Shown: positions 10,497 to 36,254, counted from the stretch's first letter. The stretch is DNA of 40,487 bases from Candidatus Micrarchaeota archaeon (GCA_013425375.1 JACCLH010000086.1:1-40487), one strand, 5' to 3'. The notes: generated by a model from the letters alone, not told the origin. Numbers and translations are program-made.

Positions 10497-10502
10497 TTTA
10501 AA
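10497..10502. promoter_or_regulatory. Palindromic TTTAAA box; candidate bidirectional TATA for the mutase and trm56 genes
   Basis: It lies 25 nt from ATG 10472 (minus strand) and 23 nt from ATG 10525 (plus strand). Both genes would be leaderless. Confidence 0.45.
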
Positions 10503-10524
10503 TTGGTTGCGATAAATCACCATC

Positions 10525-11052: not shown

Positions 11053-11098
11053 TGGCCGCGCGATATGCTGCAGGGGCCTATAGGAAGATTTTTATTAA

Positions 11099-11572
11099 AT
11101 GCCAGCATCTATTGTCCGTGATATTATGCTAGAGCCTATGAGTATCGTTTTCACTAAGGCGGAGATAAGCAGGATGAAGGAAGGCATCCCGAAGGGCGTG
11201 GAGGTCCGGCTCAATGTGGATGCGATGGATCCTGTTGACAACAACTCGCTCACCATGGGATTCACATACCTCGTCACTTACCTCCCAGAAATGGCCCTGG
11301 TCAGGGTCGCTGGCAAGGCGAACTGCAGGGACTCCCCTGAGAACATCAAGAGGGCGCTCATGGAATTCAGGAAGAACAAGGCGCTTCCTGCGGACCTGGG
11401 CGCCACTGCGCTCAATATGATAAACACCAACACCGCGGTCAATGTGATATTCTTCATCAGGCCCTTCGGCCTGATGCCTCCTTTTGTGCCGCCGCCCATC
11501 ATCCCTGCGGCAGCAATTACGGCTGCGGCATCGCCTCCGGCCAAGCCAGCGGTCAAATCAAAGGGCCGCTGA
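11099..11572 (+). CDS. Hypothetical small protein with a Pro/Ala-rich tail
   Basis: 157 aa. A TTTTATTAAA box at 11088-11097 is too close to ATG 11099, so ATG 11126 (MLEPMS...) may be the real, leaderless start. No domain could be assigned securely. Confidence 0.5.
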   Translation: MPASIVRDIMLEPMSIVFTKAEISRMKEGIPKGVEVRLNVDAMDPVDNNSLTMGFTYLVTYLPEMALVRVAGKANCRDSPENIKRALMEFRKNKALPADLGATALNMINTNTAVNVIFFIRPFGLMPPFVPPPIIPAAAITAAASPPAKPAVKSKGR

Positions 11573-11619
11573 TAGGGCCAGGTTGAAACAGGCAGACCGC
11601 GTCGTGGCTGTCCTGATAG

Positions 11620-11640
11620 CCTAAGAAAAAAGACTCAGGG
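11620..11640 (-). terminator. Oligo-T tract (T6) downstream of giant gene E
   Basis: The minus strand reads TAG-ctggcccctgagtc-TTTTTT-ctt, with the T run at 11626-11631, about 14 nt after the stop. Archaeal termination uses oligo-T tracts. Confidence 0.4.
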
Positions 11641-11645
11641 GCCAG

Positions 11646-14600
11646 CTAGAATTGGCCGCCTACGGAAACGCCGACCTCTACTGGCACTTTGCCTTCCTTG
11701 CCTATATACGGTTCTACCCTGGAAACGTCCTGCGCGTTTGACTGGTCAAGGCCAGCGCCAGTGATCGCGCGGCCCCTGCGGAAGTATGCCTTGATATAGT
11801 ATGACGGGCCGAGGCCGCCGCCATAGTCCGGGGTCCACTCCACGCCGACCGCGGTCTCGCCCACCAAAGTGCTGGTTTTTTTGCCTGTTGGCGCCACAGC
11901 TGTTGTTGTCTCTGAAGCCGGTGGTGTCGGCCTCCAGCCGGTCTCCGTGCCCCCTTCGACGTAGAAATGGACGCTGAGCTTGTCGCCTGCCACGAAATCC
12001 GCCTTGGCAACAGTGATGCCGTAGCCGACTGTGGTCCTGCTGATCTCGCTGATGTCGCAGCCGAGCGTCATGCACGCCTGCTTCAGCTCGTCCTTGTCTT
12101 CGAACACGCCACTGCTCGCCACGAATATCTTGTCCCCTTTCAAGAATATGTAGTGGGTAATCGCTTGGTTCATGGTGGATGTATTTATCAGATTTATGTT
12201 GTGGGAGAGCACCACCTTGTATTCATTCCACCTCAGGTCCCCGTACTGCTTTGTGCCGTAGAAAATGCCTCCGAGGAGCTCCTGCTTGTAGTCCTGGAAT
12301 ATGCTCGCCAGGTAGCCTGCGCTCCAGTTGTGCGAGAAGTCATGGTATTTGTAGGCACTGGTCTCAAGCGGCAGGGTGAGCGAGCCGAATGCCCGCTGGG
12401 CTGTTAACCACAGCCCCCTCCTGTCTCCTGAGAACGTGAACTTGTAATCTCCGCTCTCGGTTGCATCTATGTCCAGGGTGAAGACGTCCATGCCTATCAT
12501 ATGGTTGTTTGGGGGCCTCAGCCACTCCTGTAGGTCCTCCTCGTCGCCTACCTTCAGGGCGCCCCTTGCCGGAGCCCCCTCAGCACCGCCGCCGGCCCTC
12601 ACGGTTATCGGTGTGTGCAGCACATAGTATCGCTTGTGGGTGTCATTCTTGCCCTCTGTGGCCAGGTGCGTGCCAAGATACACGTCGTATCTCTCAGGCT
12701 GGTGGCCTTCCCTGGTGTCGGCATCCTTCACTGCCACCAGGACGTCCAGCAGGTTCCTCTCCATGAGAAGCCTGACCTCGGCGCCGGTGAGCTCGCTCTT
12801 CTTCCCGATACCTAACGGCATCGCGACCTCCTCCACTATATGCCTGGCCACGCTTTTCTCCTTGGCGGCCTCGGCTGTGAACTGCGCTACCATCTCGTTG
12901 TCAGGCAGGAGCATCCAGTCAAGGTCAGTGGTCATCTCCCTCACCGCCTCTATCATCTCAGCAGGGTATGCCAGCAGCAGCCGCTGCATGTCCGGCTCGC
13001 TCTTCTTTATCTCCAGGAACACATCCCTGAGCGCCACGGCAGGGTCCTTGGTGGTCCTCTCCTCCAGGATGTTCTTAATCCTGGTCACGCTTGGGTTGCC
13101 CTCGTCCAGTCTCTTGGCGAACTCCCGCTTTATCTCGCTCTCAGGTCTCACCATCCATCCGAACGTGTCACGGGCCTCTTCCACTGCCTTGACCAGGTCC
13201 TTGCCATACACATCCCGGAGCACCAGCGAGTCATATCCTATGCCGCCCATCTCGCGGTAGCAGCGGCGCACTGCGTCCAGCTTGCCCAGCCCCTGTGTGA
13301 GCACCGCCTCCTGCTCATAGCGCACCAGGCCGTGTAGCGGCCACCTCAGGCCACCACCGATGTCGATGTCAGTGTAGAATGTGTCTTTCCTCACGATGGG
13401 GTGGGTGTAATCCGTTCCTGTGGTCGCGCCATTGGCGTCCGCCTTCTCCCGCGCGACCAGCGCAGTGGGGAACATATAGGCATGGGCTGCCAGGTCCACG
13501 AACCCGATTGTGGGCTTGCCGAATATGTACACCGAATAGAGGCCGCCATAGTTTGCCTTGTCTGCCGCGCTGTACCTCCCTGAAGCTATGGTATAGAAGC
13601 TGTTCGCTTCGCCATTGTAGCCATAGCCCAGCGAAACCTTCCATACTGACTTGGCCAGCGACGCATTGAGGTTCTCCGAGAGCGCCTTCAGGATGGACGC
13701 CTCCTCGGTCGGGTTCGCCTGTATGTCAGCCATGGCGTCGTTTATCCTATTGTACATGCTGTCGAAGTTGGGCGCCCTGCTGCCTCCGACGAGAATGTTG
13801 TGCCTCTGGGCCCAGTACATGAACAGCAGGGACGCATAGTTCGGATCCGGCCTGGACGGCGCGTTCTTCTTGTCAGTGATATAGTTGCCGGCAGCATCCT
13901 TGACCGTGTAGTCCTCCAGCTGGCTATAGAGGTAGCTGGCGGCTATCAGGTGGCCGGTCTCTTCGGCGCGGTTCTCAGACCATTGGTAGAACCGCATCAG
14001 GAAGTCCTTCATGCTGGAGTACATCTTGTCCGCATCCTCCATCGCTACCCTGGCCTGGCGCAGGAGGTCCACCTCTGTGCGCGCTACGGTGATGCCGTAG
14101 GCGTCCGTTCTGTAAGCTGTTATCGGGGCCTCTTTCCTGAACCTTCCGGCCACGCTCTGCGGCCAGCCCTTGAGCGTCTTTGTGCCTTCGCCTACATAGC
14201 CCCACCCGGCCCGGAATTCCCATGTGTTCTCCAGCGGCTTCAGGGCAAGGGTCTGCCTGATGTACTGCACGTTGGCCTCTGCGAACGTGGTGCCCTTCAT
14301 CTTCGCCTCATATTCGCCTGCCCTGGGCATGGCCTCCAGCTTCCTGCCTTGTGCATCGTAATATCTCATATCCGCGGTCTGGACGCCGTTGAATAAGAGC
14401 ACGTGGACGTCCCTCTGGCTCTGGTCGTCCCGTATGCGCGTGAAAGCTGAGCCAATGGCCTCCTCCTGGAACACAGGATCCATCGTGCTCATGTTCCTGG
14501 TGAGCTGGCCCACGCCCAGCGCGGAGAAATTGTCGCCCTCGCCGGTCGGTATGGTGAATCCCACTGCCATGCCGCTGAAGCCGCCCTCTGCTTCTTTTGA

Positions 14601-17600
14601 GGTGAACTGCTTCCTGCCTATCATCTTGGCAGAAGCGAGCCAGTAGTCCTCATCCCCGCCGCCATAGGTGTAGTTCAGGAGCTTGGCCCTGGTGTCGTAG
14701 CCATAGGCGACCTGCTCCCAGCTGCCGTCCGGCTTGAACAGTATCAGCCTTGTCTTGACGCGGCCCTCGCCTTCCTGGATGGGCTTCGCCTTAGTGCCCG
14801 CTGCTGGCGGCACTTGCGGCGGCAGGCCTGGCAGCTCCGGAATGTACGTTCCTGAGAAGAAAAACAGCATGTCAATGCCTTTTGTCTTGGCGAGCCTGGA
14901 GCATGTTTCCATCATGCCCTTGAAGCTGCTCTGCGACTCATATGACTTCTCCACCAACGCGCCGGTCTCGCCCACCTGCGGCACTGTGGTCTCTGCCCAC
15001 GCGCCGGTCATCTGAAGGGTGCCTGAATGCAGCCCTCCCTGTTCCTCTGGCGGCAAGCCCTCGGGCTTCAGGGAATTCACCACGCTCTCGCGCATCGCCT
15101 TGCCTGCCTTCTTGGCATCCACTATCGTGACCCCGATGATTTTACCATCTTCGTCCTTGGCTATCTGCATCCCTGTGTTCGCTGCATAGGCAGCGGTGTC
15201 GGTGACGCTCGCGATCTCAGTGTATATCAGCTGGCGCAGGGAGTCTGCCATCTTGGCCTCATCATTGGCATAAACGCTGTCCATGGCCTGCTGGGCCAGC
15301 TTGCCGTCCTCCTTGGTGTCCTTCCTCACCTCGGCGACCGTGCTGTCCAGCAATGCGCTGAATCCACCATGCTCTTCATAGAACGCCTTCGCCTCTTCCT
15401 GGAGCTGGGGCGCCTTCCTTTTTTCCTCTTCCAGTTTCTTCTTCTCCTGCTCCTTCCAGCCCTGGCTGCTCGGCAGGTATGTGATGATCGGGCCCACCAT
15501 GGGGTAGGGCACGCCGCCTGCGGCCGCCGTCACGTCCACTCCCTGCGTCACCTGGCCGCTCGTGCTTTCGCCTTCCCTGCCGGTGCCTATCTTGGTATCG
15601 AGCATCTCCCATTTCGCTTCGCCGGTTCCGCCTCCTGTGGGTGTCTGCAGGCCGCCCATGGCGCCGGTGCCGCCCTTTTTGGTGGTGGATGTCTCTGCGC
15701 CTTCATATCCGTAATAGCCCGCCGCATGTCCGTATCCGCTCAACAGATAGTCTGAGTACTCGGTAGGTATGGGCGGGAACATATGGCTGAGCATTCTCAG
15801 GTAGCTGGACATGCCCATGCCGCCTATCTTGAACTCGACCGGCACCCCGAGGTTGAGCATCAGGGCCGTTTCAGGCAGGAGCTGGTACTTCATCCTCGCG
15901 AACTGCCGCGTGGCGTCTGAATCCACAAGGAACCCTCCAAGGCGGAGCTGAGCCCCGACCGGCGCAATGCCGTGCGGCACAGGCACCTCGGGCCTCAGCG
16001 GCTGTTCGTAGAGCCCAGGTATCTGGTCCAGTTCCTGGCCCCAGTAAATCCCTTTTGTGGAGTGGAAGAGCGGGTTCTCCTGGCCCCAGTTGAGGGCGGT
16101 CCGCTCGGCCATCCTCCTCTCCTCATCCTCCAGGTTGTGGTGGTCGAATGTGCTCACGCGCTTCAGGAAATCGCTCTCTATGCTGGCGAACACTTCCAGG
16201 AAATACCTGCGCCTGTGCGCGATGCTGTAGGATGTCATCGCTGCTTCCTGCTGGTAGAGCCTGGAGACCGTGGTCCTGAACTGCTGTAGTCCGGCTATGA
16301 GGATCTCCTCTGTCTGGGCGCCCTGGACCATCGCTGGCAGGGCCTGGAGCAGGAAGGGCCCGATGAGGTAGGTGTCGCGGTCGGACAATGTGAGTATGGT
16401 GTCCATGAGCGCGTCCACCGCCTTGCTGCCGAACGCGGTCGGCCCGCCTATCTCGTTGATGGCCAGGCCTATGTAGAAGGCATCTATCACCGAGAGCCGC
16501 GCCTTGAGGGCGTCCAGTTTCTCGTCGCTGAGGTCATCTGCGGTTTCAGGGTGGAAGTTCCTGTCCTGCCTGTCCTGCCGGTATCTCTTCTCCAGCTCTG
16601 TGTAACCGCCCTGGCAGCGGCTGATGAACGCCTGGCCGGATGGACTTTGTAGGAATCCTGCGAGCATGTCTGCGGTGAACCTGTTCTCTTTTATGGCTCT
16701 TGCCTTGGCCTCCGGCAGCATGATCGCGCCGGATGATATCTCCATTATCTTCTGGCCGAGCAGCTGGAGGTTGAGGTACTGGTTGAACAGGAAGTCGTTG
16801 CTGCCGAACTGCTCGCGGTAGAAGTTCACAGCCCTGGCGAAATCAGCGCCCACCCTCTCCGGAGGCGAATACAGGGAGAGCGCCTCTCCTACCATGCCAT
16901 AGACGCGCGGTATCATTTCCTGCACATGGAGGAGGTTCTTCATGAAGTTCGTCCTTCCGACCATGGGGCCGCTCTCGAACGCGCTCTGCAGGGCCTCAAG
17001 GACGGCAGGATCCAGGGAGGCGAGGTCCTTGGGCGAGGCGTCCAGCCTCTCAAGGAACGCGAACTTGCTTAGGTTGTCCTTCACATAGTCCACAAGCCGC
17101 TCTCCGTACATCCTCTTCTGCTGGAAAAAGTACAGCTCGTACATCTCCTTGACGCCCTGTTCGGCTGCCTTGGCCGGCTTTGATTTGATGAGGCGGTATA
17201 TGCTCGTGAGCGAGCGGAAGAGCTCCTCGTTCTGCTTGCGGTAGGCGCGCATGAGGGACTTCACGCTCTGCGAATAGGCAGCGGGATACGCCTGGAATAT
17301 CCTGGCCCTGGCAATCTCATCCACGCTCTGCAGCTCGGCAAGGCCTGCGGTCGGGCTGTTCATGGCCCCCAGCTTGCCCTTCTGGTCCTCCACAACCTTC
17401 ACGAACCTCTCGCCGAACAGCTTCACCATCGCATTGCGGTTCTCGGTTTCGGTCGGGCTCACGATGGCCAGGTAGCACCGCTTCACTATGGCTGCGAAAA
17501 GCTCGTTCTCGCCGAGGGCGAGGTCATCTATGCCGGCGCCTTTCTCAAGCAGCTTGAGGTGCTTGGCCTGCGCCTCCAGTTCGGTCACGAACTGCGGGCC

Positions 17601-20480: not shown

Positions 20481-20500
20481 GACAGTACTTACTCCGAGGA

Positions 20501-20508
20501 TATTTAAA
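20501..20508 (-). promoter_or_regulatory. TTTAAATA TATA-like box of giant gene E
   Basis: The minus strand reads cgaaTTTAAATAtcctcggagtaagtactgtcATG. This spacing matches the other first genes in the window. Confidence 0.55.
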
Positions 20509-20808
20509 TTCGTTCCGCCGGGGAGGGCTGAGGCGCCCACGTTGACCGCAAGGAACCAGGAAAGGAACCTGGACGCCCTTGAACCTGATCTCGCCACTTG
20601 CGTCAGACAGCCTGTCACACAAGCCGCGTCAAAGAACGGCAGAAGACGCGGCTCCGGTGGCGAAATCAGGTTTGAACGTGCCCGGGTATCTTTCAATGGT
20701 CCGGACTCGGCATGATCCGCGCTCTGCCTGTGGAGCAATCTCGGGCCTGACATGAATGGGAACCTTCCAGAATTTGGCTGTCCTGGTGATATTGTGTCAG
20801 GAAAGATT

Positions 20809-20814
20809 AAAAAA
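20809..20814 (-). terminator. T6 tract 31 nt after the stop of gene D
   Basis: The minus strand reads TAA...gtgtgacacctcTTTTTTaatctttcc. This is a candidate end of the B-C-D transcription unit. Confidence 0.35.
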
Positions 20815-20844
20815 GAGGTGTCACACTAAGGGTGCAATTGTGTA

Positions 20845-22812: not shown

Positions 22813-22816
22813 AACT

Positions 22817-25800: not shown

Positions 25801-28800
25801 CCTGGGACCTTGCGGTAGCCGCGATCGATTCGCCCATCACCCTTGCCGGGCCCACCGCTTTTATCTCTTCGAATCTGAGCACGACCGCTGCCTTTTCTGT
25901 CGGTGTGAAGTTCATGTCGAAGAGATTCTGGACTTCCTGGACGGCATCTATGCTTATCTTTCTCTTGGAAGCGATCCTGGAAGCATCCCGTCCGCACGCT
26001 TCCATTATGAACTTCGCATCGTTGCCCTCGACGGGTTCTATTGCGCGCGCTGCCATGTATTCGTGTGGTCTGATCCGAACCCCCTCATCCGCAGCTGCTT
26101 TTTCCGTTGAAGTCACTATTTTTAGGACAGCTTTGGCAAGTTCTGAATCTCCCGCTGCGCGGGCCTGCAGCTTGTTCGTCACGTTCCCTTGGGCATCCGT
26201 CACATTTTGTTTGGAATATATATGCCTGAGCACGGTCCAGTATCTGTTGTCTTTCGTTTCAAGCGCTTCCCTGTAGAGCGCTTTCACTATTTCCGCAGTC
26301 TTATCGGGTTGCGTTTCTAATACGTTCTCCAGCGCAGCGCCAGCCCGGTCCGCGACCTCCTCCATGCCTGGAACCACCATCTCTTCTGCTGCCGGCCCGG
26401 TTTTCATCCCCACAGCTTTCTTGATTGGTGCCAGCAGCTTTCCGAAACCGCTAGGTTGGGCCTGCGTAGGGGCAGCCGCCCCGGGCGCTGGTCCTGGTAC
26501 GGCGGTCGGACCTCCTGGAGCTGGGCCTCCAGCAGTCCCTCCTGGCGGAGTCGTAGCCTGCGCCCTGAACCTTGGCATCCCGGCTACCTCTGCTTCCCCC
26601 TTAGGCGCTTCGCCTAGCATCCTGCCCACAGCAGAAACAGGTCCTTCTCCGACAGCGATTTGCTGGCGGGCAGGGACTGCCTCAGGAGCCACCCGTAAGA
26701 GGACATCTGTTATGTTCGCATTTGCCTGGGCAAGCGCATTTGACACATCACGTGTTATCCTGCCGCCCTGAGCGTAGTCTGTGACCTTGACATTCTTTGT
26801 CAGCCCCTCTACCACACTGGCGATTTCCGGGCTCTCTGCCCTTATGGTCTCCACTGTCCTTTTGGCGTCAGCATACCTCGCCATGGCTGCAGGATTCTCT
26901 GCCCTGGCTCTTGCCGGAGTGAGCAATCCCTTCAGCAGTTCTGCCAAACGGTTGCCCTCAACAAGACCTGCGGCTTCTATTTCCCATCTCCTGCCCCTTG
27001 GCCCCCCTCCTGAAGGTCCGGACGGCTTGGGCGCAAACCCTTCTATGGCTTTCAGCAGCACCCTCATGCTGAGCTCATCCGGCTCCAGCCTTTGCGCATC
27101 AATCGCTTTCCTCACCCTCCCGTCCTTCAGCAATGCCTCCATCCTCGGCCTCATGGTTTTCGGCAATGGTGTGAGCAGGTTATCGCGCGTCTTTTTGTCA
27201 GCCGCTGCAAGCTCCTTCAGGAAGCTGAACAGCTCCTGCGGCCTCTGCAGTTCCTCTGCTGTCCTCACTGAAGGCGCCTTGGTCGGTTCTATGCTGACCC
27301 TTGCCGCGCCTTCACCGGCAGCGACATCAAGGACGCTTTCCATATCTGCCCTGGCTTCAGCCTTTCCCGTCACCCTGAGCGCAGGCCCGCGCATCACGCC
27401 TGACCCTGCCGCATAGGCGAACGGGAACAGTCCCATCGCAGCAAGAGCCACCCCCTTCGCGTTCTCTCCTGCACGGAACATCTCCACTGCCTCATATCCC
27501 ATGTAGCCTGAGAATCCCAGGCCGACGCCTAGGGCCCCATACCGCAGCCCGCGCGACAGCGCGCCCAATCTGGCAGCGTATGATGTGGCTCCGGCCTCCT
27601 CTGCCCTGATAGCAGCAGCACCGAACCTGCTGGCCATGCTTACCGCTCCCATGGTCAAAGGCACTGCGGCGAGCATCGCCCATGATGTCCAGCTGGCAGA
27701 GCCTTTCTCACGGTATTCAGTAAGAATCTGGTCCCATGATAAACTGGCGAATATGGCTGCTCCGGCAAGCTGTCCTCCAGGTATCACGCTCACTATCAGG
27801 CCTGTAGCGCCCACGCCTATGTTCGCCCAGAATTTCTTGTCCATGACTAGCTTCTGCATCTCCGTTACCGCCTCTCCGGCTGCTATCATGTCCCCTTTCC
27901 AGACAAGCTCCTTGACCCTGCGCTGCATACCCGCATAGTTCGTGAATACCTGGCTGGCTTCGTGCGCAGGTATGGTGAGCACAGAGGCCTCTATGAGCCT
28001 CGCTCCCCTGAGCATCTTCTCAATCTTCTCCTGGCTCTGGTCGCCTTTGACTATCCCGTACAAGGCGCTGAGCCTGAGCGTCCGGTATGTATCATATCCG
28101 CGGCGCGGCTTTCCAGGTTCTTTCTCCTCGTACATCTCCATGGCCGTGATGGTGTTCAGGATGGCGCTGTCATATGCCATGGCCGCTGTTGTCCAGTCCC
28201 CCTTCAGCATGGCCTTCCCTGCAGCATCCAGCTCTTTGTTTGCCGCGATGAGCTCGTTCTTGGCGAGCGATCCGGCCGGCCCGCTCAGCCTTCCCATGAA
28301 CGCTTGATTGGACCCCATCTCAGAATGGACCTGCCCATAGCCAGCAGCTACCCTCCTCTCGTTCTGCGCATCAGCCAGGAACGTTGCGACATCCCCGAGC
28401 GGGAGTTCGGCATTGCTCCTTTCAGAACCTGCCAGGGCGGCCATGAGCTCCGCTCCCTTCTTCTGGAGCCTTTCAACGGCAATGGCTTTTTGCGTTTCAC
28501 CATCGGACCTGTACAATCTCAAGCTTTCGTGCATGCTCTGCTGGACCTGCGTGATCAGGCCTCTTGTCTCCTCTATGGTCTGCTTCCTATAGGCACGTGA
28601 AGCCACCAAAGCGAATCTTTCCCAGAATGCGTTCCTGAGCTTTCCATATTCCCCGGCATCCCCTCTGTAAGCCGCTGATTCAAGCTTGTCCATGATTGTC
28701 GTGAGCGTGTCGCCCCTGAGCGTCGCATCCTTCGGGTTCTCTGCCTCGTACCTGCGCACGGATTCCATACTGGTGGTTCCTGAATATGTGCCGTCCTCTT

Positions 28801-31162
28801 TCCTCTGTCCCACCGGCACCTGGCCTGGCTGAAGCCCAGTGGCAAGCGGCCGCCTGCCATAATACGCATCGCCTATCATCCTCGCATCCAATCCCATCTC
28901 CCTATAGGTCTGGAGCGATGCCACTGTCCCGGTGCCCATGTCAAACCTCTGGGCCGCGGCCTTCAGTTCAGCCACATTGCGGGCGGCCATGGCCATCCTT
29001 ATGGCCTGGAGCATCTCAGTCCTGCCTTTCTTGCCTGATTCAGTGGCGAACTGCGAGTATCTCCATCCCTCTGCCCTGCCCTCGCCGGCCTGGCCGTAGT
29101 AGTCAGCCACATACTGCAGGATGGTGTTCGCTACGATGATGTCTCCTTCAGCCGTCTTCTTCACTGCCGTGGCCAGCGCAGCGTTTATCTCTTCCCCCCC
29201 CATCTGCCTTTTCGCAGCCAGCTTGCCGAGCCTTTCAGCTTCCCTGCCGACATAGGATGCCTGGGCGGCAGTGTAGCTCTTCATGAACGTGTCCTCTGCG
29301 GGCGCATTGCCACTGGCGACGGCTTTCAGGGTGCTCTCCATGCCTCCGAGCAGCTCTTCGTTCCTGACAGAAACGATCCTGCCGTTCCTCATCTCGCCGA
29401 GCCTTCCGACAGAATCAGCATAGCTGGCTGATAGCCACAGGACTTTGCCTGCCTCTTCGGTTTTTCCCTGCGATGCCAGCGTCTTCGCCCTCCCGAGCGC
29501 ATCGGTCAGGATGCCGAGCCTGGGCTCCATCTCCTTTCCCCAGCGTATGGCATCCAGCATCCCGTCAGCTTCCATGGTTGTGCGGTAATATGCCAGCGCA
29601 TTGCCGAACCTGACAGAGCCGTCCCTGGCTTTCAGCTCGTCATCTATGGCCTTCTCCATGTCCTCCATGCCTGCCCATGGCTTGCCCTTGCCGGCCTTCA
29701 GCAGGTCCGCATAGGAAAGGGCCATCTTGAAAAGCCTCCCGGCCCCTTCCACATCCGGATTATCAGCACGGAGCCTTGACATCGCCTCGTTCGCTGCAGA
29801 CGCCACGCGCCTGCTGCTGTCGCCCTTGCCAGCGCCGTATTCAGCCGCCAGCCCTTCACTCTCCAGGGCCATGGATGCTATGTCGACCTGGCTGGAGAAT
29901 GAGTCCATCATGGCAGGAGTCGCAGTCCGGCCATTGGCCATGGCGTCATGCATGGCCTGATATTCCGGCACATAATCGCTTGACTGTTTCTTCATGCTGG
30001 CGGCAGACCTCTGCAGCATGCCCAGCGAAACTGCAAGCGCTGCCATCTGTATGTCCCCGCGGTCCAGCGCGATCAATGCCTGCGCACCGAACCATCCAGG
30101 GCTGTTGTCAGCCGCTTCTCTCTTGGTGCCCTTGAGCTGGCCGGCCAGCGCCGCGATGTCTGCGGCAGCCTGCTCGTCTCCTGCCAAGGCAGACCTGCCG
30201 CTTATGAGCATGTATCTCGTTGTGATGTCCCTCATCAGCAGCGCATCTATCTCCCGGCCTTTCCTCAGTTTGTCCAGCACCTCTTCCATGCTATCCCTGA
30301 GCTCGGCCATCTTCTTCCTGTTCTGCTCTGTGGCGGCCAGTGCCATGAGGCTGTCCACGCGGCGTATGGCATCATCAAAGAAATCGATATTGCTCATCCT
30401 CACCTGCCTGGCCATCTCCTTCAGGTTCCTGTCGAATGACGAAAGCGTCAGCTTGTCGTCGCTCTCCTGCTTCTCGGTATAATCCATGCCTTTGCTAGCC
30501 TGCTCGCTTCGTTCAGCCACGAAGGTGAAAACCCCATCGCGCTCTTTCATCACCGAAATGTCGTTGGTGTTGTAAAGCTGGACATTATCGGCATAGAGAC
30601 TTGCAACGTGCAATATAGCCTCCCCTCTTGCCTGGTTCCGGGTGCCCATATCCCTGAGTGAAATCCCTATTCCGTTCAGGAAAGATTCGAACAGCCTTTC
30701 GTTCACATTGCTCGGCACACCGCTGCTCAGCACGTTCACCTCTATCTCAAGCACTGTCTCCAGATTTTTCAGCCTTGCTTCCGCACGGGCGAGCATGTCC
30801 ACAGCAGCGCCGAATCTGCCTGCTTCCCCTTCCTTCCTCGCATTGTCTATGTCCTTTTGTATGACGGTCGCCGCATCCCTGAACCACCACTCTGCCACCA
30901 CAGGTATATGCGCCTCTCTCGCTTTGCCTATCGCCTTCAAGAGCTGTGAAGCCCATGGGGATATGACAGCCGCGCTGTTCTCAGGATTCGTCCTGATGCT
31001 CGTGGAATATCCTCCGATCAGGCCCATCTCGCCGCGCACTGCCTGCAATGCCGTCCTGAGTTCCGCTTCCTGGCCCCGCTCCAGCACTGTTCTCATCGGT
31101 ATTATCGTGACAGGTATCCTTTCCGGTTCCTCTGCCCTTTTCCTCACTGTAGTCTCTGTCAT
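22817..31162 (-). CDS. Giant membrane protein C (about 2781 aa), unknown function
   Basis: The track starts at GTG 31171. ATG 31162 is preferred because GAGGTGGG lies directly upstream and overlaps the TGA stop of gene B (31173-31175). A cluster of 4 hydrophobic helices is encoded at about 27400-27840, with another hydrophobic segment at about 25190-25270. Confidence 0.8.
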   Translation of the reverse strand: MTETTVRKRAEEPERIPVTIIPMRTVLERGQEAELRTALQAVRGEMGLIGGYSTSIRTNPENSAAVISPWASQLLKAIGKAREAHIPVVAEWWFRDAATVIQKDIDNARKEGEAGRFGAAVDMLARAEARLKNLETVLEIEVNVLSSGVPSNVNERLFESFLNGIGISLRDMGTRNQARGEAILHVASLYADNVQLYNTNDISVMKERDGVFTFVAERSEQASKGMDYTEKQESDDKLTLSSFDRNLKEMARQVRMSNIDFFDDAIRRVDSLMALAATEQNRKKMAELRDSMEEVLDKLRKGREIDALLMRDITTRYMLISGRSALAGDEQAAADIAALAGQLKGTKREAADNSPGWFGAQALIALDRGDIQMAALAVSLGMLQRSAASMKKQSSDYVPEYQAMHDAMANGRTATPAMMDSFSSQVDIASMALESEGLAAEYGAGKGDSSRRVASAANEAMSRLRADNPDVEGAGRLFKMALSYADLLKAGKGKPWAGMEDMEKAIDDELKARDGSVRFGNALAYYRTTMEADGMLDAIRWGKEMEPRLGILTDALGRAKTLASQGKTEEAGKVLWLSASYADSVGRLGEMRNGRIVSVRNEELLGGMESTLKAVASGNAPAEDTFMKSYTAAQASYVGREAERLGKLAAKRQMGGEEINAALATAVKKTAEGDIIVANTILQYVADYYGQAGEGRAEGWRYSQFATESGKKGRTEMLQAIRMAMAARNVAELKAAAQRFDMGTGTVASLQTYREMGLDARMIGDAYYGRRPLATGLQPGQVPVGQRKEDGTYSGTTSMESVRRYEAENPKDATLRGDTLTTIMDKLESAAYRGDAGEYGKLRNAFWERFALVASRAYRKQTIEETRGLITQVQQSMHESLRLYRSDGETQKAIAVERLQKKGAELMAALAGSERSNAELPLGDVATFLADAQNERRVAAGYGQVHSEMGSNQAFMGRLSGPAGSLAKNELIAANKELDAAGKAMLKGDWTTAAMAYDSAILNTITAMEMYEEKEPGKPRRGYDTYRTLRLSALYGIVKGDQSQEKIEKMLRGARLIEASVLTIPAHEASQVFTNYAGMQRRVKELVWKGDMIAAGEAVTEMQKLVMDKKFWANIGVGATGLIVSVIPGGQLAGAAIFASLSWDQILTEYREKGSASWTSWAMLAAVPLTMGAVSMASRFGAAAIRAEEAGATSYAARLGALSRGLRYGALGVGLGFSGYMGYEAVEMFRAGENAKGVALAAMGLFPFAYAAGSGVMRGPALRVTGKAEARADMESVLDVAAGEGAARVSIEPTKAPSVRTAEELQRPQELFSFLKELAAADKKTRDNLLTPLPKTMRPRMEALLKDGRVRKAIDAQRLEPDELSMRVLLKAIEGFAPKPSGPSGGGPRGRRWEIEAAGLVEGNRLAELLKGLLTPARARAENPAAMARYADAKRTVETIRAESPEIASVVEGLTKNVKVTDYAQGGRITRDVSNALAQANANITDVLLRVAPEAVPARQQIAVGEGPVSAVGRMLGEAPKGEAEVAGMPRFRAQATTPPGGTAGGPAPGGPTAVPGPAPGAAAPTQAQPSGFGKLLAPIKKAVGMKTGPAAEEMVVPGMEEVADRAGAALENVLETQPDKTAEIVKALYREALETKDNRYWTVLRHIYSKQNVTDAQGNVTNKLQARAAGDSELAKAVLKIVTSTEKAAADEGVRIRPHEYMAARAIEPVEGNDAKFIMEACGRDASRIASKRKISIDAVQEVQNLFDMNFTPTEKAAVVLRFEEIKAVGPARVMGESIAATARSQALINNLPTSGNPIVDAVRQSIIRHVAPDGNLETTMLNALKSNEVARAVENVHGRGTGKAFKEAMNVGTVDAALGVMDSSLRPGMEAMWNTAKMMPDLMEELSILGAVKVRANQVLGAVDETGSTLARQAHPILYTIWDAAKVVGGFLNNVEPFTNWGGRTWLKGIAGAIPGGRIRAAASNWMYIVPQVAAWWALNHWGSPYAIGFYRTLTGAATVEEGRKMCKERYGIACSDENARWITKTGLSAQAELRTTVHETIVDVKDDILDGIGKTLKGNRMQDVVTALENAEKRLMGQVAEKDSDKQKKNIRQIFTDLKKEMAERIGGSITLKQQAEIEKIMADAENELVKEFKEALGAEKPRKNDGAALFRYIVNTFPQGDERRPDDWTEVRALLDRGVLYDIRKIDKILTDGHAMSDALDGINELLVDRKTKTKANDISGVIDIEKKLREKLEPLHIELGNVYGLLSGENKNQLDITDMANLRRKNWMERGLVLTYMDVAAETFLADTGTIGRQEVLGGQLKQESMKAESLLRWYPAVYWFMFDSVRAGNIPSVFVGDVMANLSKTGPDGKPVIEGLRQQATATKTIDVVLREHLKNAGFYIEVSGREGIKDNSFLGMLDQNAITNPGIKQDVKAILYNQRWHTENLAAFNSFALNKITIGEDGMISGGETVYGKPEDLAKFITNVSNLRATMADVAQTAAARAAAKAELITLGALTAEGTEVDIVAVAMKQGRVGPAALAEIDPELLKPGNERLVAFAVQRTTRDRNRNAESGLIKWLVDNKRAIKGNVVNILKSLQEQGTVVPKDPAKIEKFLDGQADYYKNEEAWWDISIPTPSARRKGEEKPLEKEKGMEEIVLGELKPKPVRLPGYNRVAKPGEAPPVVLSGMADTVMRVQAQIVVTNHYAMKEKSPERGMMKTLYPLPDDRARFEADVYAEIKRQVGDPKLRKTLAENGIAVTDKNGAVDVVMVTDSHKANPYLMTMGLDILKRQMKKGE

Positions 31163-31172
31163 CCATCCCACC

Positions 31173-31502
31173 TCATGAATATGTCCTGCATATGAGCACG
31201 AAGTCGCGCAGCCTTTTCATCCTCGCTCCGTCATCTGCCTTGCTCCTGGCTTTCACCGCCTCTCTCTCCCATGCCGACAGCTCCTGCTGGAACCTCTTTA
31301 TCCTCTGGACATGCGGATACATGCTCTCAGGTTTCAGGTCCGAAGAATCCCATCTTGAGAGGAAATCCCCGATGGTGCCCAGGGTCCTGTCCACGCGCCT
31401 TATTGTCTCTTCCTCTACAGAAGCAGGGTCTGTCCTTGTCGGTATGCTTCTCACGTCTTTCCGGTATATGGTGGCTTTTGGGGCCGGTTTTCTTTTAGCC
31501 AT
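31173..31502 (-). CDS. Small basic protein B (about 109 aa), unknown function; first gene of the B-C-D unit
   Basis: From ATG 31502 the protein begins MAKRKPAPKATIYRKDV. The track start at 31568 would lie upstream of the TTTATAAA box. Its stop is embedded in the Shine-Dalgarno motif of gene C. Confidence 0.55.
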   Translation of the reverse strand: MAKRKPAPKATIYRKDVRSIPTRTDPASVEEETIRRVDRTLGTIGDFLSRWDSSDLKPESMYPHVQRIKRFQQELSAWEREAVKARSKADDGARMKRLRDFVLICRTYS

Positions 31503-31533
31503 GCGAGCACCTGTACAGTTATACCTGTGCAAC

Positions 31534-31541
31534 TTTATAAA
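31534..31541 (-). promoter_or_regulatory. TTTATAAA TATA-like box upstream of gene B
   Basis: A palindromic AT box lies 32 nt upstream of ATG 31502, within the 126-nt A-B gap. Confidence 0.45.
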
Positions 31542-31580
31542 TATGACCGGGGTTCCATCGAGGTGCACCCTTATAACCGG

Positions 31581-31628
31581 GAAAAAAGGTGGAAAACAAC
31601 AAAATAAAAGATGAAAATAAAGAAAAAA
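31581..31628 (-). terminator. Extended T-rich tract immediately after the stop of giant gene A
   Basis: The minus strand reads TGA-TTTTTTCTTTATTTTCATCTTTTATTTTGTTGTTTTCCACCTTTTTTC, with multiple T4-T6 runs. Confidence 0.55.
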
Positions 31629-34600
31629 TCAGTTCTTGGCCGGAGGTGAGGCTGGTGCTGTGGTCTCCGCAGGTTTCAGCTTCTTGAGCAGATTCAGCAT
31701 GCGCGAGCGCAGGGTCATCCTGGCCTTGTCTGCGTCCTTGACCTCAGCTGCGGTCACCGCGTTTCCTGTGTCCTTGGTGACCAGTATGCCGCTGTCAGTG
31801 GCATAGGTGACGGGGTCCTTCACAGATGCGAAGCCCACATATATCCACTGCTTGAGTGATTCGTCAATGGCCGCAGTCGCGCCTCCGAAGGCGCTTCCCA
31901 TGACCTCCGCGGCGAGCTTGCCGTCTGCGCGCTTGTCCTCGTGCAGCTGCTGTATGGAGAGTTCCACACCCTTGGTGAAGAGCTCCTGGGACGTAGAGGT
32001 ATAGAACCTCTTGGCTTCCTCGCTCAGCTTGGGGATATCCATCCTGCCTTCCTGGGGCGCGGCGTCTGTAGTTATATACCCCTTGCCCACTGCATACTGC
32101 ACCAGGTATCCTGGCGGATCGGTGAACGGGTCGTAGTCTTCGACCTTGCCCTTGGCTGCCTTGTGCTCTGCCAGCTTCTGGATGAATTCCCTGGAACTGG
32201 AGACGCTTGCGTAGTACTTCACGCCGCTCTTCTCGAACTTGCCCAGGAGCCCCACGATATCCTCGTTGTCCTTGGCCGTGAGCACGTCAAGCGCCTGGAC
32301 AGTAGGCAGGTCCAATGGCTTGCTCACATCTATGCTGAGCAGCCGCTTCATCTTGTTGGCTATCTGGTAGCGCCTGAATTCCGGTTCGGTGTTCTCCACC
32401 CAGCCGCTCTTCTCTGCGGCTGCCTTGGTGGTGTCGAACGCCGTGTTGAGCACATCTTCAGGGACATAGGCTATGGCAAGGTTCACTCCAGGTATGGCCT
32501 TCTTCACCTCTGCCATCCAATTCCCGACGAACGCGTCCCTCTTGTCCTCCTTCACCCAGCGCTCGGCCCTCCCCTTCATGCCGCACATGTTGACGAACGT
32601 GCTTATCCTGCCGCTTCCCTGGTTGTGCAGGAACGCGACGTTGCTGCGGTTGGTAGTCTTGATGTTGTCCACCAGGTCCTTCTCCGCTGCCGTTATGAGG
32701 AATCCCTGCGTGGTCCAGTTCATCATGTTGGTCGGATGGGTCAGGAACTTGTGATCCATCACCATCTCGGTATCGCCGACCTTCCCGAGCGCATCAGCGA
32801 AAGCCTTGTTGGCCGGCTTCGCGAGGAAGGCGGCATCCACCTTCGTGTTGCTCTTCTTCAGCTCGGCGAGCTTCGTCATGAAGGCCTCCTTGTCCTTTTT
32901 CTCCTCTTTCTTATCTTTCTTCTCCAGCGCCTGGTCCACAATGCTCTCCACGAACGCTGCGTTCTTCGGGTCTGTGAGGAACCAGTAGTTCACCTTCTTG
33001 GCCTTGCCTTCCAGGGCCATGAGGGTATCCACGAACCTGTCGCTCTCATACCTGTTCAGGACGCGGCCGTCATCTACCGGGTAGGTGCTCAGGTCTATGG
33101 TGCAGCATACGCCCATCTTCGGGTCCCATCCTTCCTTTCCGATGGTTGCCGGCTCGTAATCTGCTATCGCTCTCCAGCTCGCCTCTATGTCAGGTACCTC
33201 GGCCTTCGCATCCTTGTATCTCATGAAGTTGAGCCCGTCAGGGTCCTGGCAGCTCTTCGGTATGGCTTCTTTGGGGTTTGTGCAGTTCTCAGGCCCTGCG
33301 CCGATGTCCTTCACGCTCACGAACCTCCTCATGGAAGTGCGTTCCTGCAAGAACTTCAGCACGTCCGGGTGGTTCTCCAGCCAGTTGAGCCTTTCAGTCG
33401 GCCCGTCACACTGGACGATTCCGCAAAGCCGGTCAGAGACATTGGCCGCGAGCCAGTTGGTTCTCTCGTACTCTTCGCCAGGCAGCGCGTTGCCGACTCC
33501 GTACTGGCTCCTGTAAACATCATATCCTCGCTCAGGCAGCTTCCATGCGATGTCGTAGCTGTCATCTCTGTACGCTCTGGTGTCCCTCTGCGATTCCACA
33601 GGCAGGAACCAGGTCCATGGGTAGTACAGGTGCGAACTCGCGTCATTTATGTAGAGCGGGCCATTCACCAGGCCAGTAGCCCTGATGCCTGCGCTGGGCC
33701 ACGACCACGGCTTGTACCAGTGGCCTTCGCCGCTGCCAACCACGAGGCTGAACGCCGCGGGCAATATGATATACGACTTCAGGCCTGCCCAGAAGACTCC
33801 GCTCACGATGCGTGGTATCGTGGAAACGTGCAGGATGTCATTGCCATCCGCATCCTGGTCAGGCCAGGTTATTTTCTGGAACCAGTTCCTGTACAGCAGG
33901 TCGCCGCCGGTGTATCTCTTCTCCGACTTGTTATAATCACCGAAAAACTGTTTGCCTGGAAGTATGTGAAGGAACACCCGCCGCCCCGTATTAATATATA
34001 CATTCGGATCGAATACATTCTGAAGTATCCAGTTTATCGCGGACTTGAACGAGCCTTCGTGCTTGGTGACCCCATGCTCAGGGTCAGTGGAAATCTCCTC
34101 GAACATCGACCTCGCCAGCATCCTCTGCCCATCGCTTATGCCTAGGGGGTTGCTCTCCTTGCGCTCCTTCGCCTTCTTGAGCGAGAGCTCCACAACCTTC
34201 CTGATGGGCTGGCCATGCGTTTTCCTTATATCGTCTATCTCCCTGGAGATGTATTCTGTCTGCTCGGTCAGCGCTTTTGTCGCGTGGTCGTGCGCACCAC
34301 TGGCATCCTTGACTGCTTTGGGCTTAATCGTGGCTGCGAACTCAAGGTTGCCCAGTGTGGTCGCCATCCATGCGAGCCGTTCCCTTGTCTCAGCCGGTAT
34401 GGGTGCGGCCGCCAGCTCCTGCCTGAACGCCTCCATCTTCTCCTCAAACGCATCTATCCTCTTGCCGAAAACATCGTCATCCGCGACCTTCGCCTGTTTG
34501 CCTGCAACGCCCTCGCTCATCCTCTTCATGAGAAGAAGGCGATCGAAGCTGGCCCTTTCTGTCTTCAGCTCTTCGGCCTGCTTGAGCAGGTCCATGAGCG

Positions 34601-36038
34601 CCTTGTTCTCCTGCCTCTCGGCCATGATATTCCCGATGTTCTTGTCGTCGATTCTGTCCTTTGACCTGAGCAGGTGGCCCTTGAACTCGCGGGTCAGTTC
34701 CTTGGCGATGGATTCAGGGCTGCTGTTTTTCCTGTATTTCTCAAGATCTTTCTGTATCTCAGCCAATTGCGCCTCTGCCTCCTCCCTTGCGCCCCTGGCC
34801 TGGTCCAGCGCATCCCCTGCGGACTCGACCAACTGCGCCAGCTGCGGAGAATCCTTCGCGAGCGTGACCGTTCCTGAGGCGCTGGGCACATCGACGCTCC
34901 CTTTATCATCAGCCTCTGCCTTCATCTTCGCAATATCATCATTCCTTTTCGCAGCGCTCTCCTCAGCAACCATGGCAGCGCCCGCCTTGCCTGCGGCGAC
35001 CCGCGCTTTCTGCTCCTTCTCGCCCAGCGTATTCGCGTATTCCTGGGCATATCCTGGGCAAGGGACCTGAAGCTCCGGATGGAGCCTGTCGGCCGGAGCC
35101 ATGAGCATGGATGTGACATTGTTCTCGAACGCTTCCGAAGCCCATCCTATCGGGCCGACGGATTCCTCGTAGAGGTACCTGCTGATGTATTCTGTGTCCA
35201 CCATCGTCCTGGCCGGGTGCTTCTGCCAATCAGTGAATGTCCTCATCAGGGAAAGGTTGTACACCACAGCGGCACAGAACGGGCCCTCTGCGTTCGGGCG
35301 CACGTCCTGTGCGACGCTCTCCAGGAACATGAAGAACGCCTCGGGCGGTTTCGGAGCGCCTGTCATAGACCATCCCTTCTCATTGTCCCACAGTGCGGCC
35401 TTCCCCAGCATGGTCGTGAATATGATGTCCAGTTCATGGGTGGTGATGTCGCCGACCAGGTAATCCGGATGGGTCCGCGCGTGTTCCAGCTGGTCTGCGA
35501 GCCTATTCCTCTTCTTCAGCATGTCCTTCTCGTATTCGCTGTCAAGCGGCTCCATGGGGGTGGGTATGCCCCTCACCCTTATCGCTTTGACGAACATCGG
35601 GTTGCACACGACCTCCCTGATGAGCGAATCCGAGTCCTGCGCGGACCTGTTCTCGCTCCTCCTGATGGCTGCTTGCAGGCGGTTCTTCACGATAGTGGTG
35701 TCTGCGCCCTGTTGCATCTTCGGGTCAAGCCTCGGCGCGCCTCCTGTGGCCTTCGTCCGGTCCACATTGGCTTCCGTATCCTGCTCACTGCCCTCAAGCT
35801 TTTTCCTCTTATTGAATCTGACTTCCTCATCATGCTCGGATTCAGCATCCGTGATTTTCCGCTTAGCTTCCTTCCTGGGCTCCGCATTGGTCTTGGACCA
35901 GGGATTTAGGACCTGATGTGCGGTTCCAGCGACCTTCACAACCGGATTCCTGCCTGCCCTCTCGCCCCACGCATTCTTGGTTTTGTCCAATGTCCTTCCT
36001 ACGAATCCCGCCATAGTTTCACCTAGTTCTCCCACCAT
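31629..36038 (-). CDS. Giant protein A (1469 aa), one predicted hydrophobic helix, unknown function
   Basis: An uninterrupted ORF. ATG 36038 and ATG 36014 are both possible; the latter has AGGTGA 4-5 nt upstream. One hydrophobic helix (IVSGVFWAGLKSYIILPAAFSLVVGSG) is encoded at about 33725-33815. Confidence 0.8.
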   Translation of the reverse strand: MVGELGETMAGFVGRTLDKTKNAWGERAGRNPVVKVAGTAHQVLNPWSKTNAEPRKEAKRKITDAESEHDEEVRFNKRKKLEGSEQDTEANVDRTKATGGAPRLDPKMQQGADTTIVKNRLQAAIRRSENRSAQDSDSLIREVVCNPMFVKAIRVRGIPTPMEPLDSEYEKDMLKKRNRLADQLEHARTHPDYLVGDITTHELDIIFTTMLGKAALWDNEKGWSMTGAPKPPEAFFMFLESVAQDVRPNAEGPFCAAVVYNLSLMRTFTDWQKHPARTMVDTEYISRYLYEESVGPIGWASEAFENNVTSMLMAPADRLHPELQVPCPGYAQEYANTLGEKEQKARVAAGKAGAAMVAEESAAKRNDDIAKMKAEADDKGSVDVPSASGTVTLAKDSPQLAQLVESAGDALDQARGAREEAEAQLAEIQKDLEKYRKNSSPESIAKELTREFKGHLLRSKDRIDDKNIGNIMAERQENKALMDLLKQAEELKTERASFDRLLLMKRMSEGVAGKQAKVADDDVFGKRIDAFEEKMEAFRQELAAAPIPAETRERLAWMATTLGNLEFAATIKPKAVKDASGAHDHATKALTEQTEYISREIDDIRKTHGQPIRKVVELSLKKAKERKESNPLGISDGQRMLARSMFEEISTDPEHGVTKHEGSFKSAINWILQNVFDPNVYINTGRRVFLHILPGKQFFGDYNKSEKRYTGGDLLYRNWFQKITWPDQDADGNDILHVSTIPRIVSGVFWAGLKSYIILPAAFSLVVGSGEGHWYKPWSWPSAGIRATGLVNGPLYINDASSHLYYPWTWFLPVESQRDTRAYRDDSYDIAWKLPERGYDVYRSQYGVGNALPGEEYERTNWLAANVSDRLCGIVQCDGPTERLNWLENHPDVLKFLQERTSMRRFVSVKDIGAGPENCTNPKEAIPKSCQDPDGLNFMRYKDAKAEVPDIEASWRAIADYEPATIGKEGWDPKMGVCCTIDLSTYPVDDGRVLNRYESDRFVDTLMALEGKAKKVNYWFLTDPKNAAFVESIVDQALEKKDKKEEKKDKEAFMTKLAELKKSNTKVDAAFLAKPANKAFADALGKVGDTEMVMDHKFLTHPTNMMNWTTQGFLITAAEKDLVDNIKTTNRSNVAFLHNQGSGRISTFVNMCGMKGRAERWVKEDKRDAFVGNWMAEVKKAIPGVNLAIAYVPEDVLNTAFDTTKAAAEKSGWVENTEPEFRRYQIANKMKRLLSIDVSKPLDLPTVQALDVLTAKDNEDIVGLLGKFEKSGVKYYASVSSSREFIQKLAEHKAAKGKVEDYDPFTDPPGYLVQYAVGKGYITTDAAPQEGRMDIPKLSEEAKRFYTSTSQELFTKGVELSIQQLHEDKRADGKLAAEVMGSAFGGATAAIDESLKQWIYVGFASVKDPVTYATDSGILVTKDTGNAVTAAEVKDADKARMTLRSRMLNLLKKLKPAETTAPASPPAKN

Positions 36039-36080
36039 CTAGTATTGATTGTATTTTGTAGCATTATGTGTGAGATAGCC

Positions 36081-36088
36081 TTTTTAAA
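36081..36088 (-). promoter_or_regulatory. TTTAAAAA box upstream of giant gene A
   Basis: The minus strand reads acaTTTAAAAAggc about 43 nt upstream of ATG 36038, in the 216-nt ftsY-A gap. Confidence 0.4.
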
Positions 36089-36254
36089 TGTATTTTTTAG
36101 TGGTTTTTTGCGAAAAGTAGGCGGATGGCTCCACAAAGGCTGGACGCATCTCAACGTTCTTCTCTGTTTTCGCCGGGCGGCAAGGTGGCGTGGGTTCCTG
36201 CCATCAAAATGCCACGCCGGCAGACGCTGTCTTCACCGACCGCTGACTGCCTGA

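Follow-up and report, generated by a model that had tools for sequence, protein, structure and literature searches.

What kind of system fills the 24 kb that separate the genes for FtsY and aTrm56 in an archaeon of the Micrarchaeota type? The stretch of DNA analysed here (the window) is an entire 40.5-kb archaeal contig, 40,487 nucleotides long, from Candidatus Micrarchaeota archaeon (GCA_013425375.1 JACCLH010000086.1:1-40487). Five open reading frames (ORFs) on its minus strand, A-B-C-D-E, occupy the FtsY-to-aTrm56 interval, and an earlier note on this DNA had proposed that they form an undescribed envelope or cell-contact system of four giant proteins and one small basic protein; we count three of the five as giant. 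The cluster proves to be conserved, vertically inherited and fast-evolving, to occur in one lineage only, and to be built of new protein families. Our preferred reading, to which we give a probability of roughly 40%, is that the encoded proteins would make up an assembly peculiar to this lineage of Micrarchaeota-type DPANN archaea, membrane-anchored and partly exported, which would serve the envelope or contact with the host.

All five ORFs were found where the earlier note had placed them. Gene A (31629-36038; 1469 aa, or 1461 aa from a second ATG at 36014), delimited by its ORF and its homologues, is a transcription unit of its own. It is followed on the same minus strand by the ORFs of B (31173-31502; 109 aa), C (22817-31162; 2781 aa), which encodes the signature giant protein of the cluster, and D (20845-22812; 655 aa), and finally by E (11646-20597; ~2983 aa with a GTG start at 20597). 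The reading frame of E opens at ATG 20753 (3035 aa), and the database call, like the earlier note, starts the protein at ATG 20480 (~2944 aa); we consider GTG 20597 more likely, because the N-terminus conserved in relatives extends upstream of ATG 20480. B, C and D are translationally coupled, as had been noticed: the TGA stop of B sits within TGAGGTGGG, the ATG of C lies 5 nt beyond that motif, and the C/D junction reads TGA-AGTT-ATG, with AGGAGAG just upstream. TATA-like boxes precede A (CATTTAAAAAGG, 36079-36090), as proposed, and also B (ATTTATAAAG, 31533-31542, ~30 nt before the B ATG). The box formerly assigned to E did not hold up, as ATTTAAATAT (20499-20510, 5' of ATG 20480) codes for conserved N-L-N-I residues and is not a promoter. 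The oligo-T tracts described behind A and E were located, the former as a T-rich tract of 49 nt (31580-31628) and the latter at 11620-11634, and another follows D (20805-20817). From the promoter boxes, the T tracts and the coupled junctions, the division into three co-oriented units, A / B-C-D / E, is therefore correct. GC content is 0.56-0.61 in the cluster vs 0.47-0.58 in its flanks, and there is hence no foreign signature; together with the fixed chromosomal position, this agrees with the native composition read earlier. Scans of the window for Rfam families, tRNAs and tandem repeats gave nothing relevant, and long antisense ORFs are also present in the region.

Homologues came from a word-indexed search of 5.8 billion clusters, which returned very few; the comparison then took in the contigs on which they lie, two metagenome loci and other contigs with family members. 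The order (FtsY)-A-B-C-D-E was found in at least ten other loci from metagenome-assembled genomes (MAGs) of Micrarchaeota-type DPANN, with GC contents of 39-62%. The site is nearly always directly downstream of the S19e…eIF6-prefoldin-FtsY string, as it is here and as the earlier note had observed for the window; the search for synteny that it suggested, and its view that the genes are evolutionarily linked, were borne out by these loci and by the terminal module described below. The locus reads S19e…prefoldin-FtsY-(NTP_transf_2/HEPN)-A-B-C-D-74 aa-88 aa-E in L009 (a Micrarchaeota MAG, GC 39.5%), FtsY-117 aa-A-B-C-D in L007 (Ca. Bilamarchaeum sp., Micrarchaeia), S19e…FtsY-A-C1-B-C2-D in L012 (a Micrarchaeia MAG, GC 62.5%), and S19e…FtsY-B(181 aa)-C-D in L011 (an ENA assembly), where an inverted E-like gene and a homologue of w157, a small gene beside E, come next. 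Among the JGI metagenomes, L005 has eIF6-prefoldin-FtsY-A-B-C, L002 has C-D, L010 has B-C only, and L003 has C-D-E-165 aa-Trm56-MscL-phosphoglucomutase (PGM)-PRPPs-DJ-1-Fd-GGR…ThyX-epimerase, which is the neighbourhood of the window. The remaining loci are A-B-C in L001 (a 'Candidatus ainarchaeum sp.' MAG), B-C-D-E in L006 (GC 46%), B-C-D-MazE-PemK-E in L008 (GC 44%) and B-C-D-E'-(149 aa)-E'' in L013 (an NCBI MAG). B-C-D is the constant core, and A and E are usually there, if more variable: A is absent in L011, D and E are absent beside C in L010, and C is duplicated in L012. The L012 duplicates (10001-27663) are tandem copies of 2825 aa and 2895 aa with B in between.

A HMMER search with a profile of the C core found 55 clusters (50% identity) at E < 1e-3 among 1.84 billion representatives, 41 of the 55 below E 1e-30 and nearly all 1,700-3,600 aa in length or fragments. 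All named members are hypothetical proteins of 'Candidatus Micrarchaeota/Micrarchaeia archaeon'. A pattern-based scan of a genome collection pointed to one species genome only; it was under-sensitive, since the exhaustive search with hidden Markov models (HMMs) gave members in several NCBI MAGs. Independent NCBI, JGI, ENA and Logan assemblies of differing GC contain homologues that are collinear over the full length and 23-60% identical, and A-E are therefore not chance ORFs. The cluster is real, intact and under selection, and its five (perhaps six) genes, in three units, are passed on as a group at one fixed place in the chromosome.

These proteins diverge quickly. Between the window and L005, housekeeping proteins are 83-92% identical, while A, B and C are 39%, 67% and 60% identical; against L003 the housekeeping range is 61-74%, with C, D and E at 31%, 34% and 35%; and against L009 it is 59-78%, with A, B, C, D and E at 26%, 45%, 33%, 30% and 35%. 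In all compared locus pairs the highest conservation within the cluster is that of B and the lowest that of A. Judged by these identities, the rate of evolution in the cluster is about double that of the housekeeping genes beside it. E, though fast, is under purifying selection, because its conservation is even along the whole length (30-45% identity to its full-length homologue P0005). The cluster proteins are highly charged, rich in Ala, Glu, Lys and Arg, and predicted to be largely helical, and three of them are poor in cysteine (C 0.1%, D 0%, E 0.3%, vs 1.2% in neighbouring housekeeping proteins).

None of the five proteins has a significant match in Pfam, PHROGs, NCBIfam or PADLOC, and the same holds for their relatives, distant C members included, save for an SGNH domain in relatives of D; in six distant C relatives no Pfam domain was found. 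Sequence searches of the PDB, with single A, C and E sequences and with profiles of B, D, the shared module and the A and E families, gave SGNH matches only, confined to the domain inserted in relatives of D. Foldseek comparison of AlphaFold2 models (the C core and residues 690-1469 of A) against PDB and BFVD gave nothing below E 0.07. A list of BFVD hits, rich in tape-measure proteins, was discarded (TM-score at most 0.15, root-mean-square deviation ~40 A). No match was found in IMG/VR, in 50,697 GenBank phage records (tblastn) or among PLSDB plasmids, and a full-text literature search turned up no description of such a cluster, including in the Micrarchaeota co-culture papers PMC11329633 and PMC8975820. 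The earlier impression that no recognisable family is present thus extends from inspection by eye to profile and structure comparison. No component can be assigned to a family already known, and we know of no description of a comparable system, with the caveat that giant, fast-evolving proteins of episymbionts are a recognised theme (e.g., SPEARE in Nanohaloarchaeota).

The families A, C, D and E are mutually unrelated by profile comparison, apart from one module. This element of 125-135 aa, of alpha/beta type and with a basic tail behind it, has the consensus P-x-L-s-x-E-A-x-x-F-Y … DG-x-L … I-K-A-E-I-Y-R-x-L-T-S … W-G-I-T-V-S-G-x-G-E … R-N-x-I. It lies at the C-terminus of A (31653-32063, minus strand; residues 1326-1462) and, as a diverged copy, at that of C (22832-23170, minus strand; residues ~2668-2780; hhalign probability 93.5%, E 2.3e-7), and it forms an internal insertion in E (15033-15437, minus strand). 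The A and E copies are 34% identical (E 3e-16), and those of C relatives score at iE 1e-5 to 1e-36. The module closes A, with two copies in L001, L005 and the homologue P0007, and nearly all full-length proteins of the C family. Its insertion in E is specific to the genome of the window, being absent from the E of L003, where the alignment is 95% gap at this place. The module claimed earlier for A, C, E and probably D is therefore upheld for the first three; profile comparison did not find it in D. A GYDxYR motif and other short strings common to A, C and D were rejected as chance resemblances that are not conserved in relatives.

C carries, in mid-protein, a cluster of Gly-rich hydrophobic helices (27386-27838, minus strand; residues ~1112-1262; Kyte-Doolittle 1.4-2.0). 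We count three to four, where four to five had been reported, and Kyte-Doolittle scans showed the cluster in every C homologue examined. Over its core (residues 582-1445), C shares 63% identity with close relatives and ~30% with distant ones. The small B protein, with its basic N-terminus and an invariant C-terminus, RLRDFVLICRTYS, keeps 55-81% identity in close relatives and 31-52% in distant ones. No PDB or family match was found for it: its resemblance to tail-fibre models is weak and sub-threshold (E 0.015-0.05), and in PADLOC a type I specificity-subunit model matches 44 of its residues at a non-significant E of 0.0085.

Homologues of A are P0007 (38% identity) and P0008 (27%; Ca. Bilamarchaeum), and others occur in L001, L005, L009 and L012. 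The N-terminal region is conserved, with the motifs SDSLIREVVCN, THELDII, KPPEAF and THGQPLRKV. A hydrophobic segment or hairpin (33714-33821, minus strand; residues ~740-775; Kyte-Doolittle 1.45) is a candidate membrane anchor; it is kept in P0007 and in the A of L001 and is shorter in P0008. Behind it comes a Cys/Trp-rich region (33009-33713, minus strand; residues ~776-1010) with C-x4-C, C-x10-C and CC motifs, in which C930, C978, C979 and Trp residues are invariant in the alignments. The succession of hydrophobic helix and Cys/Trp-rich region described for A in the earlier note is thus present and conserved, and membrane association of C, through its three to four conserved helices, and of A is plausible.

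D consists of two conserved domains that match no family, and homologues were found in L002, L003, L006, L007, L008, L009, L011, L012 and L013. Between the two domains, a GDSL/SGNH hydrolase domain of ~190 aa, located in D or in its called fragment, is present in L002, L003, L007, L008, L012 and L013 and faintly in L011; the D of L006 has an insert of matching size. Pfam Lipase_GDSL_2 scores E 2e-27 in L002, where the four catalytic blocks are intact (GDSIT, GVSG, GGVND, DGLHP), and 1e-8 in L003, where block I reads GAS. In the D of the window, alignment with L002 (7530-9875) and L003 (6990-9398) leaves a short remnant at this site (21493-21630, minus strand; residues ~395-440). The D of L009 (521 aa) likewise has no SGNH domain, which suggests repeated loss. 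On the evidence of these alignments, D ancestrally carried a predicted esterase (SGNH) domain.

E had been described as having no hydrophobic feature, and this does not stand. Upstream of ATG 20480 the alignments reveal a conserved, signal-peptide-like N-terminus (20475-20597, minus strand), in which a basic and a hydrophobic stretch are followed by GGxN(I/L)N and V-M-A|E-P; the N-terminus is conserved in five relatives, and V-M-A|E/Q-P in four. It reads (V53)ARSGSRASRFLSWFLAVNVGASALPGGTNLNILGVSTVMA|EPVKK in the window, MPRRLKSFAKWLLPPLTAAQVLIGGININNLSPNEVMA|QP in L003, …RRRKSSIFAKYLLAPVVAVSVLLGGNNINDLGINSVMA|QP in L006 and …RSRWMKYFLSASIGVGTVTNINYFGGNEAMA|EQ in L009; the second E-like gene of L013 (E'') begins …RSRLKRAVSYILTAATFCAAGTVDKIARA|QD, a clearer Sec-like peptide with an ARA|QD site. 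The layout resembles that of a Sec signal peptide, with a basic n-region, an h-region and a small-x-small site. Eight copies of a predicted helical repeat of 65 aa (consensus LAxAVRDVYAELxxGNPDxxRLRxKYGKDLVDAVEENRADLDWLVRPPAEIEAEL) were identified in E by jackhmmer at 17034-19667 and two more at 12867-13277 (both minus strand; the latter residues 2493-2629 in the 3035-aa numbering), giving at least ten. The repeats, which are also found in the E of L003 and in the E-like proteins of L013, emerged only with iterative HMM search; self-BLAST of A, C and E showed none. The C-terminal parts of E are richer in Gly, Tyr and beta-formers, and both E (11646-11915) and P0005 end in a Gly/Tyr-rich stretch with a terminal aromatic (…VSVGGQF and …LYGRVQW). 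L013 (17203-24984) has two E-like genes, of 1590 aa and >814 aa on the contig (called 1910 aa), both with the repeat; the clear Sec-like signal is in the second only.

Convergent with E lies w157 (11099-11572, plus strand; 157 aa), which has no Pfam match. Its homologues adjoin E-like genes in L003 (18040-18537; 45% identity) and, despite rearrangement, in L011 (22973-23368; 26%), and the family (131-165 aa) shares an INMIN…IRPF…PPF motif and a Pro-rich basic tail. L013 has a 149-aa gene at the equivalent position, a match by place only. w157 may be a sixth, linked component of the system.

From these sequences we infer a surface or cell-contact apparatus. C, of ~2800-3600 aa, would be held in the cytoplasmic membrane by its central three to four Gly-rich hydrophobic helices, with its large helical arms as a scaffold, and A would be anchored by its hydrophobic hairpin or segment and display a disulfide-type Cys/Trp-rich domain. 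A Sec-like signal at its N-terminus would export E, whose N-terminal half with the helical repeats and Gly/Tyr-rich C-terminal half would form an extended extracellular part. The shared module could serve the giants jointly for docking or sorting, by taking them to a single partner or site, and the E of the window would have acquired an internal copy of it; B could be a cytoplasmic chaperone or adaptor of C. D would ancestrally have supplied an SGNH esterase, whose targets were probably acetylated glycans or other envelope esters; here and in L009 only the domains that flank it would be left. Ether-linked archaeal lipids are an unlikely substrate for a classical lipase action. In obligate episymbionts without lipid, nucleotide or amino-acid synthesis, host-surface attachment and remodelling would be the most likely job.

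The interpretation offered by the earlier note is partly supported. The linkage of the genes, the native locus, the lack of a known family and a plausible membrane association of C and A speak for it, and its proposals of a module in D and of the start and promoter of E do not survive. The envelope reading gains further support from the signal-like N-terminus of E, the cysteine depletion of C, D and E, the roughly twofold divergence and the SGNH domain in relatives of D. Against it stand several observations. In C and A the helices reach no more than a moderate hydrophobicity (Kyte-Doolittle 1.4-2.0) and are rich in Gly, and the signal region of E in the window is weakly hydrophobic (1.12) and unusually long. 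An N-terminal signal peptide is absent from A, C and D, and N-x-S/T sequons are not enriched in any cluster protein, their density being that of housekeeping proteins, unlike typical archaeal surface proteins. The D of the window has lost the whole SGNH domain, catalytic blocks included, and with it the sole enzymatic clue. The structure models lend no fold support, because their mean predicted local distance difference test (pLDDT) scores are 56 and 49: the C core is modelled as all-helical with moderate confidence for core residues 180-480 only and low confidence in the hydrophobic block, and the model of A 690-1469 is of low confidence. In the ARM-1 system, moreover, intercellular nanotubes are attributed to the host and not to the DPANN cell (PMC11329633).

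Two other readings keep the proteins in or on the cell but away from the host. The cluster might build the cell's own envelope, as an S-layer anchor or a membrane-stabilising scaffold for the integrity and shape of a tiny cell. The membrane, signal-peptide-like and cysteine-depletion evidence fits this equally well, a core structure would suit a locus that is widely conserved in the lineage and fixed beside FtsY and the ribosomal genes, and Micrarchaeota S-layers exist whose anchoring is unexplained (PMC8975820). We nevertheless think it unlikely, as a core structural element would hardly be expected to diverge so fast, the content varies (in L010, L011 and L012, with SGNH lost twice), and there is neither sequon enrichment nor similarity to known S-layer families. 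An intracellular giant scaffold, whether cytoskeletal, nucleoid- or membrane-remodelling or division-related, with its hydrophobic helices peripheral or buried, would accommodate several features: A, C and D without signal peptides, sequons at background level, charged and largely helical proteins, weak hydrophobic segments and neighbours concerned with translation and targeting. It sits badly with the conserved signal-like N-terminus of the E family and its V/A-x-A motif, with the cysteine pairs that follow the hydrophobic segment of A, with the strong cysteine depletion of C, D and E, with the SGNH esterase domain in D relatives, and with the accelerated evolution, so that we hold it, too, to be improbable.

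A viral ancestry is far less probable still. C is very long and helical, with central Gly-rich hydrophobic segments as in tape-measure proteins, and in a domesticated tail or injection-like module of a virus or mobile element B could be its chaperone, D a tail esterase and E a fibre. SGNH esterases are common on phage tails, the non-significant Foldseek list from BFVD consisted mostly of tape-measure and minor-tail proteins, B has sub-threshold tail-fibre scores, and toxin-antitoxin pairs lie in or by the clusters of relatives. Yet no capsid, portal, terminase, integrase, sheath or tube gene is present, and the flanks in the window and in five relatives are ribosomal, FtsY and metabolic genes, not virion genes. 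The searches of PHROGs, IMG/VR, GenBank phages and plasmids were empty, and the same chromosomal site is kept across genomes of 39-62% GC. That the ORFs are an artefact of GC-rich DNA or of chimeric assembly, as the missing annotation and the long antisense ORFs might suggest, is effectively refuted by the collinear homologues in independent assemblies, the even conservation of E and the conserved junctions.

An envelope or host-contact assembly remains the reading that we prefer. Taken further, the cluster could be the symbiont half of the Micrarchaeota-host interface: a phylum-wide machine of five new families, in which C and A would be the anchor, E the arm and D an esterase opening the host envelope for the uptake of lipids and metabolites, with the module as a B-assisted sorting or docking signal. 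This fuller picture is speculative, and we consider it rather doubtful. To our knowledge, no symbiont-side machinery has been identified for Micrarchaeota, and it is still being asked how DPANN cells hold on to their hosts and draw material from them. Electron cryotomography shows Micrarchaeota touching their hosts via uncharacterised structures (PMC8975820, PMC11329633). The locus offers a concrete and recognisable candidate, marked by its FtsY-adjacent position, the B-C-D core, the diagnostic C-terminal module and the E repeat, and it could be sought in the co-cultures of Ca. Micrarchaeum harzensis, Ca. Mancarchaeum acidiphilum and Microcaldus variisymbioticus ARM-1. Micrarchaeota-type genomes are strongly reduced, and a conserved investment of 24 kb is striking in such a lineage. 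Even as a scaffold of the cell's own envelope or interior, the cluster adds five protein families, one repeat and one terminal domain, all of them new.

The surroundings of the cluster show some features of their own. On the FtsY side lie genes for S19e, a dsDNA-binding protein, L31e, eIF-6, prefoldin and FtsY, and on the other side genes for aTrm56, PGM, an ankyrin-repeat protein, PRPP synthase, DJ-1/PfpI and geranylgeranyl reductase, with flavin reductase, a double ThyX and an epimerase further along. The ThyX protein (1043-2701, minus strand; 552 aa) has two stretches matching Thy1, an apparent tandem-domain fusion; its L003 counterpart has 535 aa. The gene for the ankyrin-repeat protein (8529-9071, plus strand; 180 aa; Ank E 2e-23) is flanked by those for PRPP synthase and PGM, and the syntenic region of L003 is without it and has MscL beside Trm56. 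The longest ORF of PGM (9078-10817, minus strand; 579 aa) overlaps aTrm56 (10525-11052, plus strand) by ~290 nt; the true start is probably an internal ATG, because the Pfam domains begin at residue 118 and the L003 orthologue has 433 aa. In relatives, genes of toxin-antitoxin type stand within the cluster or at its edges (MazE/PemK, L008 14462-15051; NTP_transf_2/HEPN, L009 4132-5107; ParE, L011 30339-30491), and in L011 seven tandem paralogues of ~146-156 aa without a Pfam match (757-4677) lie directly upstream of the S19e ribosomal string.

How, then, does the cluster compare with known systems? Like a phage tape-measure protein with its chaperone, C is long and helical, with central Gly-rich hydrophobic segments, a small coupled gene before it and, in relatives, an esterase-bearing protein after it; it differs in being 3-4 times longer, in having no significant match of sequence or fold and no other virion genes, and in its fixed locus beside FtsY. 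Relatives of D hold a bona fide SGNH/GDSL hydrolase domain with the four conserved blocks, but it is embedded between the two novel D domains and is deleted in the window and in L009. The module recalls the sorting domains of type IX secretion (the C-terminal domain, CTD) and PGF-CTERM in standing at the extreme C-terminus of several large proteins of one locus, with a basic tail, but it is alpha/beta, ~125 aa long and without sequence similarity to them, one copy (in E) is internal, and A may have two; nor was a sortase or secretion system identified that would go with it. Its beta-hairpin (…D-x-D-G-K-I-I-G-V-T-I-V-D-A) resembles the C-terminal motif of DUF2283 (PF10049); at 12.1 bits vs a cut-off of 23 (E 0.23), over 23 residues only, this is a resemblance of motif and not membership. 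Set beside archaeal S-layer and surface glycoproteins, E has a signal-like N-terminus, no S-layer domain was found, and the sequon density is at housekeeping level. SPEARE proteins of Nanohaloarchaeota, as generally understood, have serine-protease, adhesion and restriction-endonuclease domains and are encoded by single genes; here A, C, D and E, and distant C members, have no Pfam or NCBIfam domains, show no sequence similarity to them and belong to a five-gene cluster. What the two have in common is that both are very large, lineage-specific proteins of obligate DPANN episymbionts that occupy a considerable part of a reduced genome and for which a part in host attachment or invasion has been proposed.

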